Position numbers and translations under genes: made by a program. The notes under the pieces were generated by a model, which saw nothing but the letters and a program-made list of their open reading frames with translations, searched no databases and was not told the origin of the DNA. From Escherichia phage BEK2: 46,880 nt of DNA. Where the stretch lies: the sequence record MN158206.1, one strand, 5' to 3'. Below are positions 20,514-37,543 of this stretch, piece by piece (position 1 is the first letter of the stretch; the number at the start of each line of letters is the position of its first letter).

Positions 20514-21458
20514 TTAATACATGTCAGGAAGGTAAGGAAGTGGTGTTGATATTGTTACGTCAGGCCTATTCCCTATCTCGTATCTGACAATCCTTGAACC
20601 GGTTCCTGAGCGAACATAACCATTGCTCATCACGATTCCTTTGTTTCTCAACTCCTTATATGCTGGTATTGCCCTTGTGTTAAATCCACATCTAAGTATT
20701 GGGAAGTAAGAGTCACCAATGTACTGGTTGCTACCTGATAGGTTTATGAATCCAGAAACAACCAATGGCCTTGTGACGGTTGATAAAGTGCAGGCACCAT
20801 TTGAGTTAAATATGTTAAGTCCCGGACCAGGGGTTGGTGCTACCATCTGAAAAATAATCAAGTCCATAGTGACACTTCCTGGGGTATCACCAGTATCTTC
20901 AGTATTTATGTTTGTACATATTAACTGATTGCTCCCATTGTACTCAACTGACACACCGGAGTTGCTCCACTTTCCAAATGGAATTCCATAAATTGGCAGC
21001 GTGTAAGTGTCGGTGAAAGATATACTCTGAGCAAACTTGCACACCAACAACCTGTCAGTGGTGGTTATCGAAGTAAAATCAGTACTATTCGCAACATAAA
21101 TACCCTGGCCAGCCGATGCTCTTAGTACCTCAACAACAGTGCCAGAAAATTGCGTTATACGGTCAGAGTATCCATTCTCGTAACCAATTGATATTGTTCC
21201 GCTTGATTCTGTTGATGAAAATCCATTTATGTAGTAAATCTCAACTCCCCTATCAAGTTCGAATGAGTAGGCGCCATTGTTAGGGATAAGGAACCTTGAC
21301 GCTCCTTCATTGCCCTGAATTGAAAATGTCTTACTAAACCCGCCGCTAGAAACGTTGAAATTGCCAGCGAAATTCAATGCCCGCATCCCTGCGGTAATTG
21401 TCATTGGCTTCCTTCCATCATTGAGGTCTATATAAATACCTTGAGCCATTAATTCCAC
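20514..21458 (-). CDS. putative receptor-binding / tail-tip accessory protein
   Basis: 314 aa Gly/Ser/Thr/Asn-rich beta-type protein co-transcribed downstream of lipoprotein gene, adjacent and convergent to J; functional call is inference. Confidence 0.4.
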
Positions 21459-21679
21459 TCCTTAGAGCCATAATCACTAACAGATCCACCGGAGCCTTTA
21501 ATACCAGCGTAGCGAATATCAACCTCACCAGCAGGAACAACTACACCACCTTTCCACTTAGACACGCACACGCCGTTTGCTTGCGTTGCACACCAACCAT
21601 CCGGGCGAGGACCAGAAGAACAACCAACTGCCATGATTACTGCTGCTGCGATGATTGCTGATTTGATGAAGTTATTCAT
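21449..21679 (-). CDS. lipoprotein, Cor/Llp-like superinfection-exclusion candidate
   Basis: signal peptide + lipobox '[10 protein letters not shown]|SS'; ATG 21679 with AAGGAA RBS; small mature domain with 3 Cys. Confidence 0.65.
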
Positions 21680-35866: not shown

Positions 35867-36043
35867 ATGACTAAAATGATTTATTGCACCAAAAACAATT
35901 CCAAGACCCTGCCATTTACAGTTAACCAGCCGTACAACGCAGAGTACCAGGGCGATGGATATTACAAGATTTATGGAGACGATATGAAGCACATCTTAGC
36001 GCCGATTGATGGTTCGTTGGTTGAATTTATTATCGCTGACTAG
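35867..36043 (+). CDS. hypothetical small protein (58 aa)
   Basis: ATG 35867 after promoter; followed by terminator. Confidence 0.35.
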   Translation: MTKMIYCTKNNSKTLPFTVNQPYNAEYQGDGYYKIYGDDMKHILAPIDGSLVEFIIAD

Positions 36044-36070
36044 CGCAGCAAAAACATAGTGTTACGAACG

Positions 36071-36096
36071 GGGAGCCTTTTGGCTCCCTTTTTTTA
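36071..36096 (+). terminator. intrinsic terminator
   Basis: ggggagcc-tttt-ggctccc + T7. Confidence 0.7.
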
Positions 36097-36173
36097 TGCT
36101 TCTTTTCCTAGCGGTGCTAATGTATCATTCTTTTATTAACTTAAACATTGACAAATACATAAAGGTGGATCAC

Positions 36174-36389
36174 ATGAGGGAGGTAATTAACGCCGCTACG
36201 GCATCAACTGGAGGCGCTGCGGTAACTGGCGCGGCAACTGGTCAAATGACTATAGCAATAATCAGCCTTATCGCTCTAATCATTTTTGGAGCCTGGGGTG
36301 CTTACTGGAAGTATAAGGATAGTCAAGCTATTCGTCGAGCCCTTGAGTCTGGCGACCTGAAAACGGCAATCAATATAAGGAGCAAGTAA
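36174..36389 (+). CDS. holin/pinholin-like membrane protein
   Basis: ATG 36174 with AAGGTGG RBS; TM segment 'MTIAIISLIALIIFGAWGAYW'; immediately upstream of endolysin. Confidence 0.55.
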   Translation: MREVINAATASTGGAAVTGAATGQMTIAIISLIALIIFGAWGAYWKYKDSQAIRRALESGDLKTAINIRSK

Positions 36390-36875
36390 ATGAAGCAGAA
36401 GCTGGCCATTAGTGCTGCGACAGCTGCGGCAATATACATAGCAGCGCCACTTATTGAGCTTGTGGAGGGTGTAGAGAATAAGCCGTATATTGACATTGCT
36501 GGGGTGAAAACAGTTTGTTCAGGGATCACTGGCAACGACGTAGTTTGGGGTAAAACTTACAGTAACAGGGAATGCAGAAACCTGCTGGAGAAACACATTC
36601 AGATTCATGGGAAGCATGTTCAGGATGCTGTAACCTACCAAATTGCACCGCAGACAAGGGCGGCTTTAATCAGCTTTAGCTACAATGTTGGCGGCTCTGC
36701 GATGAGGAAGTCTACGGCTGTTAAATTAATTAACCAGGGCAAGATTGAGCAAGGTTGCAAGGCTCTCGGGATGTGGGACAAGGCTCGAGTTAACGGGAAA
36801 CTGAAGGTAGTTAAAGGCCTGGTGAATCGCAGGAATGAGGAGATTAAGTTATGCTTAAGTGGATTGCAGCGTTAG
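36390..36875 (+). CDS. endolysin, T4-lysozyme-like, with N-terminal SAR-like segment
   Basis: catalytic triad context 'ELVEGVENKPYIDIAGVKT' (E..D..T); weakly hydrophobic Ala-rich N-terminus. Confidence 0.7.
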   Translation: MKQKLAISAATAAAIYIAAPLIELVEGVENKPYIDIAGVKTVCSGITGNDVVWGKTYSNRECRNLLEKHIQIHGKHVQDAVTYQIAPQTRAALISFSYNVGGSAMRKSTAVKLINQGKIEQGCKALGMWDKARVNGKLKVVKGLVNRRNEEIKLCLSGLQR

Positions 36876-37240
36876 TGATGTGCGTAGCTTTATCTGGATG
36901 CTCAGCAACATCTGCTCTGACCGGGTTAATTGGCAGCAAGCCAGAGATTAGCGCACAGGCTGGAGCAGAAAACAACAATGTTGGAGTTGGGTTAACGAAT
37001 AAGGTTGACCACAGTAACTCCAGCGATGCCACCGTCAAAGATTCTAAGGTTGGTTCACTAGATAGCTCGAGCGGGAAAAAGACTTCTGATAACTCTATTA
37101 AGGCATCAACAATCACGGCAGAAAAGATTGAGATTACAAACAACGAATCATCAGCGCTTCCGTGGGTTGGAACTGGGGCTATGGGGTTACTGGTTTTTGT
37201 TCTCCTGGCCGTAATCTTAAGACGTAAAAAAGCCTCCTAA
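36851..37240 (+). CDS. unimolecular spanin (lipoprotein N-terminus + C-terminal TM)
   Basis: lipobox 'LSGC|S' and C-terminal TM 'LPWVGTGAMGLLVFVLLAVILRRKK', the architecture described for phage T1 gp11. Confidence 0.7.
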   Translation: MLKWIAALVMCVALSGCSATSALTGLIGSKPEISAQAGAENNNVGVGLTNKVDHSNSSDATVKDSKVGSLDSSSGKKTSDNSIKASTITAEKIEITNNESSALPWVGTGAMGLLVFVLLAVILRRKKAS

Positions 37241-37247
37241 TGGAGGC
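37230..37247. terminator. bidirectional terminator between convergent operons
   Basis: agcctcc-taat-ggaggct with flanking A/T runs. Confidence 0.55.
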
Positions 37248-37265
37248 TATGCTTTTCTTTTCTAT

Positions 37266-37463
37266 TTAATCTCTTTCAACCGTGAAAGTTTTGCTAAATT
37301 GCTCATTTGTCATAGTTACAAATCCATTTCTGTGCTTAACCTTCATGTTTTCACTTCCGGCATACATATACTCATATACTCTACCGACAGTAAAGTAAAT
37401 GAAGCACATTTCCTCTCTCTCACTCAGGTTTGCAAAAGACATGCCTTTATATTTGGCCTTCAT
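37266..37463 (-). CDS. hypothetical protein
   Basis: 65 aa ORF. Confidence 0.4.
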   Translation of the reverse strand: MKAKYKGMSFANLSEREEMCFIYFTVGRVYEYMYAGSENMKVKHRNGFVTMTNEQFSKTFTVERD

Positions 37464-37543
37464 GATAATTTCCTTTCTCTTCTTAGTTTATATGGATTAA
37501 TAATAACAAAAGCCCACAAGGGGCTTTTAACAAAAGGTGCTAT

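Follow-up and report, generated by a model that had tools for sequence, protein, structure and literature searches.

Positions 36174-37240 of the window (by which we mean the whole stretch of DNA that was analysed, 46,880 nucleotides) very probably encode the lysis cassette of an Rtp-like coliphage of the T1 superfamily, and the three products would most likely act by the pinholin / SAR-endolysin / u-spanin pathway. According to both the ORF listing and the raw sequence, this interval is filled exactly by three tandem open reading frames on the plus strand, just as an earlier note on this DNA had described them. Our analysis gives direct results on the order of the genes, their homology, their motifs, and their topology signals; the lysis activities are predicted. 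The cassette is an ordinary T1/Rtp-like three-gene module: it is already deposited, and modules of this type are well described.

Identification of the phage and the cassette

In a megablast search with positions 36000-37300, the only match with 100% identity over the full query was the record for phage BEK3 (MN158207.1; 46,884 bp). Window coordinates are those of MN158207.1 minus 4. The window is essentially a complete phage genome that was already deposited. The taxonomy of MN158207.1 is Drexlerviridae; Braunvirinae, and the Drexlerviridae are the former T1-like phages. The same search found 85 further records at 80-90% identity. These are mostly from Rtp-like coliphages, for instance IME253, which is classified in the genus Rtpvirus. 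The earlier note had taken the architecture of the spanin as support for a T1-like assignment. The assignment holds at the level of the Drexlerviridae, but the phage is Rtp-like (Braunvirinae) and not T1 proper (Tunavirinae), and the spanin is a poor guide when taken alone, as discussed below.

All three genes match PHROG profiles (E = 1.9e-37 for the holin, 4.6e-45 for the endolysin, and 7.4e-49 for the Rz-like spanin). Pairwise comparisons by BLASTP to gp13, gp12, and gp11 of phage T1 gave E = 1e-31, 1e-41, and 4e-23, respectively. Also, lipoprotein signals are rare in this 46.9-kb window, where just one ORF besides the spanin has one. Because of these matches and the rarity of the signal, we do not consider the three genes to be a chance pattern. 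The coordinates of the cassette and of nearby features are in Table 1.

Table 1. Features of the lysis cassette and its surroundings, in window coordinates.
Feature	Position	Strand	Basis
DUF7244 (SH3-clan) protein, 58 aa, T1 gp14 homologue	35867..36043	+	PF23896, PHROG 4788
Intrinsic-terminator-like hairpin and T-run	36070..36096	+	8-pair stem with 6 G-C pairs, then TTTTTTT
Shine-Dalgarno-like AAAGGTGGA	36161-36169	+	5' of the holin start
Predicted holin, 71 aa, T1 gp13 family	36174..36389	+	PHROG 2877, similarity to T1 gp13
Predicted SAR-type GH24 endolysin (muramidase), 161 aa	36390..36875	+	PF00959, RrrD/R21 matches
SAR-like segment, endolysin residues 5-22	nt 36402-36455	+	Hydropathy, composition
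Endolysin E26	36465-36467	+	Catalytic residue by alignment
Endolysin D35	36492-36494	+	Catalytic residue by alignment
Endolysin T41	36510-36512	+	Catalytic residue by alignment
Predicted unimolecular spanin, 129 aa, T1 gp11 family	36851..37240	+	PHROG 1804, similarity to T1 gp11 and Rtp
Spanin lipoprotein signal	residues 1-16	+	
Spanin lipobox LSGC, residues 14-17	nt 36890-36901	+	Cys17 at 36899-36901
Spanin C-terminal TMD, residues ~104-123	nt 37160-37219	+	Followed by cytoplasmic RRKKAS
Bidirectional terminator-like hairpin	37231..37248	both strands	Loop contains the spanin stop codon

Limits of the spanin as a marker of T1-like phages

We examined 80 IMG/VR loci that contain a homologue of the spanin. 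The T1-type holin occurred together with the spanin only in 19 Drexlerviridae-type loci (it was found in 19/19 of these). At 58 of the 80 loci, the T1-type holin was not detected, and the sole endolysin match was downstream, with 27-33% identity. These 58 loci are on contigs of 42-45 kb and look like KP34-type podophages. Because the gp11 family of u-spanins is also found in KP34-like podophages, a spanin of this family is, by itself, weak support for a T1-like assignment. The diagnostic feature is the co-occurrence and order of the SH3, holin, endolysin, and spanin genes, along with the flanking exonuclease and helicase genes.

The endolysin

The earlier note had recognised a T4-lysozyme-like endolysin, and this agrees with a match to Phage_lysozyme (PF00959; E = 3.7e-34). 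Its best matches in the PDB are RrrD (4ZPU; E = 3.7e-27) and the SAR endolysin R21 (3HDE, E = 1.7e-26; 3HDF, E = 9.4e-26). The SAR regions of these closest solved relatives are part of the alignment: the alignments to 4ZPU and 3HDE begin at residue 10, which is within the N-terminal hydrophobic segment. The endolysin is also 46% identical to T1 gp12.

After the N-terminal MKQK, with its lysines at positions 2 and 4, the endolysin has 18 uncharged residues (5-22). The average hydropathy of this segment on the Kyte-Doolittle scale (KD) is 1.98, and 56% of its residues are Gly, Ala, Ser, or Thr; the corresponding values for the SAR domain of RrrD/R21 are 1.99 and 65%. E26, D35, and T41 are spaced as Glu-8-Asp-5-Thr, and in the alignment they fall on the LEGV...KDIVG...WTVC motif of R21 and RrrD. 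Both the SAR-like N-terminus and this spacing are retained in the relatives from the Drexlerviridae. Because the SAR segment lacks cysteine (there is none in residues 1-25), the endolysin would be of the R21 type and not of the disulfide-caged type of P1 Lyz. Its four cysteines (residues 43, 62, 123, and 155) align with cysteines of R21.

These features and the homology to R21 and RrrD give good support to the SAR assignment. An improbable alternative is that the endolysin does not act by tether and release: it could have a cleavable signal peptide, or it could be soluble and cytoplasmic and depend on a canonical holin. The hydropathy of the N-terminal segment (1.98) would indeed be sufficient for an ordinary signal peptide. 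However, both the hydropathy and the composition of the segment equal those of RrrD, and it aligns with the R21/RrrD SAR domain, which is kept in the mature, active enzyme (3HDF). Furthermore, the only A-x-A-like site is at an Ala-Ala-Pro junction, which places Pro at +1, and Pro at this position disfavours cleavage by signal peptidase I. As for the cytoplasmic version, the T1 endolysin lyses E. coli when expressed alone, while the T7 endolysin does not (PMC10954549). Lysis without a holin excludes a purely cytoplasmic enzyme and fits with holin-independent export. We therefore retain the SAR assignment.

The spanin

The earlier note had described a single protein with both a lipobox and a C-terminal transmembrane segment, as in T1 gp11, and both parts of this description were confirmed. 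The third and last gene of the cassette, which overlaps the endolysin gene by 25 nt, encodes a full-length homologue of this prototype u-spanin (39% identity over the whole length), with the same LSGC lipobox and with a C-terminal TMD according to both hydropathy and an AlphaFold2 helix. It belongs to PHROG 1804 (Rz-like spanin) and is 93% identical, over its full length, to a protein from phage Rtp. Members of the gp11 family are defined as sharing at least 40% identity with other members across 40% or more of the periplasmic domain (PMC6139136). By this measure, the similarity of the periplasmic domain to T1 gp11 is borderline (39.8% identity over 83/86 residues). Because Rtp is a listed member of the family (Table 5 of PMC6139136), the 93% identity to its protein places the spanin within the family.

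The N-terminal signal has MLK as its n-region and WIAALVMCVA as its h-region, and these are followed by the lipobox with Cys17. LSGC is also the lipobox of wild-type T1 gp11, and the pattern for the family is [LVI][ASTVI][GAS]C (PMC6139136). At the +2 position there is Ser18 and no Asp, as expected for sorting to the outer membrane, and residues 18-103 contain no cysteine, in agreement with the criterion of a cysteine-free periplasmic domain. Near the C-terminus, hydropathy in 19-residue windows (KD19) peaks at 2.41 (residues 105-123), and RRKKAS follows.

These features are conserved. Across 51 unique homologues of the spanin, all 51 have the C-terminal TMD and 48 have Ser at +2. For the other three, the lipoboxes were called as AAGC, TGSC, and IIAC, which we judged to be parsing errors. 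The lipobox cysteine is present at all 80 of the IMG/VR loci; the motif is L[ST]GCS at 77 of them and LYGC, ICGC, or VSGC at the remaining three.

AlphaFold2 placed helices at residues 2-14 (the signal), 20-23, and 105-127 (the TMD). Its confidence was low overall (mean pLDDT of 53.5) and about 85 in the block of residues 111-120; the helices of the signal and of the TMD are the sole confident parts. Residues 18-87 had pLDDT below 50 and no strands, in a model built from a shallow alignment of 30 sequences (78-93% identity). The alignment was shallow because the large protein search listed only relatives with at least 78% identity, and these were without Pfam domains. For the periplasmic domain of the gp11 family, a beta-rich architecture has been described, in which a short helix precedes several strands (PMC6139136). 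At its low confidence in this domain, the model did not reproduce that architecture, and it does not speak against it either.

We considered other ways of reading this locus. A two-component spanin was rejected: the only embedded or overlapping ORF in the spanin gene that might encode an Rz1-like protein is a 30-aa ORF that starts with GTG (36859-36951) and lacks a lipobox. We also rejected Met10 (36878), which is the start in the RefSeq record for Rtp. Because starting at Met10 would leave just four residues (MCVA) before the lipobox, the start at 36851 is needed for a functional signal. Also, the spanin has a sub-threshold match to the NCBIfam family "spanin2_3" (22 bits, with a cut-off of 80); the lipoprotein signal is the most likely reason for this match.

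The evidence supports the third gene as a putative unimolecular spanin of the T1 gp11 family, with spanin function assigned by homology. Its homologues in JulesPiccard, ETEP102, and Stevie are annotated as u-spanins. Homologues in several other records are labelled "lipoprotein", "putative membrane protein", "hypothetical protein", or even "serine protease", which might suggest an unrelated bitopic lipoprotein, such as a superinfection-exclusion or Cor-like protein, that does not disrupt the outer membrane. We view this as highly improbable, given the full-length homology to T1 gp11, which complements lambda RzRz1 (PMC6139136; complementation is known for T1 gp11 only). In both of the phage families that carry it, the gene always adjoins holin and endolysin genes, and the window contains no other candidate for the spanin. 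The only other ORF with a lipobox (76 aa; 21449-21679) lacks a C-terminal TMD.

The holin

The small transmembrane protein of the earlier note is a homologue of T1 gp13 (58% identity by BLASTP), and it matches all of PHROG 2877 (positions 1-71 of 71). It has one strongly hydrophobic segment, at residues 25-45 (mean KD of 1.96), which is the only segment with KD19 above 1.6, and its C-terminal tail is basic. Just before the strongly hydrophobic segment is an uncharged segment of 20 residues (4-23; KD of 0.84), of which 80% are Gly, Ala, Ser, or Thr. The uncharged character of the N-terminal 20 residues is kept across the family. The holin did not match any Pfam holin family, and it has no similarity that BLASTP could detect (E = 1.1) to EssD, the S21-like holin from the DLP12 prophage. 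Judging by its sequence, the holin is a member of the T1 gp13 family and lies outside the S21 family.

The start at 36174 is conserved. Many close relatives have a stop codon within 4-10 codons upstream in this frame, and the annotated holins of T1, Rtp, JulesPiccard, and ETEP102 are all 71 aa. The 89-aa holin in the GenBank record for BEK3 is hence an over-extension. Starts further upstream, at 36096 and 36120, were rejected for two reasons: they lack a Shine-Dalgarno sequence, and many close relatives have a closed frame there.

The holin probably works like a pinholin, although this is a functional inference only. Pinholins of the S21 type have two TMDs, of which the first is weakly hydrophobic and can be released, and they form small heptameric holes. 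A competing view, less probable but deserving serious attention, is that the holin has a single TMD (N-out, C-in) and is not a pinholin, and that it forms large or otherwise different lesions. In that case, the N-terminal segment rich in Gly, Ala, Ser, and Thr would lie in the periplasm as a tail, and there would be no releasable TMD1. This view would account for the single segment with KD19 above 1.6 and for the lack of sequence similarity to S21. Also, residues 4-23 run directly into TMD2, so that the two hydrophobic stretches are contiguous, without the polar loop that is found in EssD/S21. On the other hand, the N-terminal 20 residues are uncharged, their character is conserved in the family, and at 0.84 their KD exceeds that of TMD1 of EssD/S21 (0.52, for what we take to be the position of TMD1 in EssD). 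The partner endolysin is of the SAR type, for which depolarisation suffices. Published descriptions differ: the record for T1 gp13 notes one transmembrane domain, while the paper on phage TLS gives two (PMC11447400). Stevie's homologue carries a pinholin annotation, and T1-family cassettes have been described as combining a pinholin with a SAR endolysin (PMC6139136, PMC11447400, PMC13164509), which also argues against the single-TMD view. When the T1 holin was expressed alone, it had low bactericidal activity (PMC10954549). Overall, we favor a pinholin-like function.

The upstream SH3-like gene and transcription signals

Upstream of the holin gene, and outside of 36174-37240, is a gene for a 58-aa protein. 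This protein matches DUF7244 (E = 4.7e-29), which belongs to the SH3 clan, and it shares 44% identity with T1 gp14. A DUF7244 gene is found 5' of the holin gene in 14 of the 19 Drexlerviridae-type loci. A standalone SH3 protein was recently proposed to be an auxiliary part of the lysis module in the Drexlerviridae (PMC13164509, 2026). It is possible that the DUF7244 gene is an accessory gene of the lysis module.

A bolder proposal has two parts: that the 71-aa holins of the T1/Rtp type are a topologically distinct class of pinholin, and that the DUF7244/SH3-like protein is a genuine fourth lysis factor. The first part is suggested by the uncharged stretch of 42 residues, which has no loop between helices, in a holin that is unrelated to S21. 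As to the second part, the SH3-like protein may act in a Gram-negative host by tuning the SAR endolysin. We think it unlikely that both parts are correct. Both ideas have already been raised in the literature and neither is specific to the window.

A terminator-like hairpin stands between the DUF7244 gene and the holin gene. A scan for sigma-70-like promoters between this hairpin and the holin found none, and sites in the region were as numerous as expected from shuffled sequences. There is a TTGACA at 36149-36154, and it lacks a usable -10 element. At the other end, the hairpin at 37231-37248 closes the cassette against converging genes on the minus strand. The corresponding site is annotated as a terminator in T1 and bears terminators on both strands in Stevie.

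Proposed mechanism of lysis

By homology, we would expect the host's Sec machinery to export the endolysin during late infection, with the weakly hydrophobic SAR segment at its N-terminus keeping it inactive and tethered to the inner membrane. Meanwhile, the 71-aa holin would build up in the inner membrane until its programmed triggering, which would form small holes and collapse the proton motive force. If the endolysin behaves as the R21 structures suggest, depolarisation would release the SAR segment, and the freed enzyme would refold, bringing E26, D35, and T41 together in an active muramidase site, and would then degrade the peptidoglycan.

The expected behaviour of the spanin follows that of T1 gp11. 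By this time it would have been lipidated at Cys17 and, because the +2 residue is Ser, sorted to the outer membrane, while its C-terminal helix would stay in the inner membrane. With the lipid at one end and the helix at the other, a single chain would cross the periplasm and pass through the meshes of the peptidoglycan. Removal of the wall would free the spanin to move and to collapse, and this would disrupt the outer membrane, probably through fusion of the two membranes.

Implications for annotation

The cassette is a textbook case of the pinholin / SAR endolysin / u-spanin pathway, and its scientific interest is small. The topology of the holin, the structure of the spanin's periplasmic domain, and the role of the SH3-like gene are family-wide matters, and none of them is specific to the window. 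The practical value is in annotation: the GenBank record for BEK3 labels the spanin as a "hypothetical protein" and over-extends the holin, and in the RefSeq record for Rtp, a shortened start drops the lipoprotein signal from the spanin. Correctly delimited spanins have some applied use, because u-spanins of the T1 type have been investigated as potent bactericidal payloads that act within the cell (PMC10954549).

Comparison with known systems

The spanin of KP34-like podophages (Drulisvirus) is of the gp11 family (~50% identity); its lipobox is LTGC, and it, too, has a C-terminal TMD. In these phages, the order of the genes is spanin, holin, endolysin, as seen in the annotated genome of Drulisvirus KPPK108.2. 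Their holin is unrelated to ours, and their GH24 endolysin is only 27-33% identical.

In phage 21 and DLP12 (S21/EssD and R21/RrrD), the endolysin is a clear homologue of the endolysin from the window (E ~1e-26). R21 and RrrD share with it the E-D-T triad, the positions of the four cysteines, and a SAR segment that is free of cysteine, so we expect the same mode of activation. In contrast, S21 is not detectably related to the holin from the window, and instead of a unimolecular spanin, 21/DLP12 has an embedded two-component pair (RzpD/RzoD).

Rtp (rtp63-rtp65) and the BASEL phage JulesPiccard (bas03_0052-0054) have holins that are ~94-99% identical to that of the window, with 86-89% identity for the endolysins and 91-93% for the spanins. 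Their genes are laid out in the same way, down to the 25-nt overlap, and those of JulesPiccard are annotated as holin, endolysin, and u-spanin. In the RefSeq record, the Rtp spanin begins at the internal Met10, which gives a protein of 120 aa that has lost the n-region of the signal peptide. Unlike Rtp and JulesPiccard, the window (and BEK3) has a unique 65-aa orphan ORF directly 3' of the cassette.

T1 is from a different subfamily (Tunavirinae instead of Braunvirinae), and its holin (gp13), endolysin (gp12), and u-spanin (gp11) genes are in the same order as in the window, at 58%, 46%, and 39% identity. There are two differences in layout. First, the endolysin and spanin genes of T1 abut, with an overlap of 1 nt, instead of the 25 nt seen in the window, in BEK3, and in other Rtp-like phages. 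Second, T1 has a gene for an HNH endonuclease (gp15) between the exonuclease gene and gp14, which the window and BEK3 lack. Otherwise, synteny with both T1 and Rtp is complete: gp16 exonuclease, gp14, holin, endolysin, spanin, the reversed gp10, and gp9 helicase. The T1 spanin gene also shares finer details with the spanin gene in the window: its product has the identical LSGC followed by Ser, and a terminator hairpin overlaps its end.

Annotation of the lysis genes in public records

The entries for the holin and the spanin of BEK3 (MN158207.1, a 100% identical match to BEK2) and for the RefSeq spanin of phage Rtp are annotation errors. In the BEK3 record, the holin call is 18 codons too long (the extra sequence corresponds to window 36120-36173), and the spanin is labelled "hypothetical protein". 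The Rtp spanin (1478-1840 of the Rtp locus, L090) was given an internal methionine, Met10, as its start, which leaves a protein of 120 aa and removes the n-region of the signal peptide.

Residues 8-88 of the unimolecular spanin (u-spanin; window 36851-37237 region) had a sub-threshold match to the NCBIfam family "spanin2_3, bacteriophage spanin2 family", scoring 22 bits (E = 1e-4) where the cut-off is 80 bits. The lipoprotein signal probably accounts for this match. According to published work, similarity between u-spanins and o-spanins is not detectable (PMC6139136).

Neighboring genes and a second lipoprotein

Coordinates of genes considered alongside the lysis cassette
Feature	Window	Strand	Description
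DUF7244 / SH3-clan gene	35867-36043	+	58 aa; T1 gp14 homologue
65-aa ORF	37266-37463	-	directly downstream of spanin
76-aa ORF	21449-21679	-	lipoprotein signal

The DUF7244 gene lies directly upstream of the holin, with a terminator-like hairpin between the two, and was recently put forward as an accessory component of the Drexlerviridae lysis module (PMC13164509). On the other side of the cassette, the 65-aa ORF is flanked by one terminator-like hairpin at 37231-37248 and another at 37507-37529. Neither Pfam nor PHROG gave a match for it, and blastn and tblastn against 50,697 phage records returned BEK3 itself and no other match. It looks like an orphan insertion that is unique to this phage.

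Apart from the spanin, only the 76-aa ORF carries a lipoprotein signal in the whole window. It matches PHROG 4281, a family of unknown function, and we infer that it may be a superinfection-exclusion lipoprotein of the Cor/Llp type.

Spanin homologues in other phages

Homologues of the u-spanin at ~50% identity are found in IMG/VR (loci L023-L088), on contigs that resemble KP34-type podophages. The sole endolysin match at these loci is downstream of the spanin (27-33% identity), and the T1-type holin (T1 gp13 family) was not detected there. These observations suggest that the spanin gene has been transferred between phage families.
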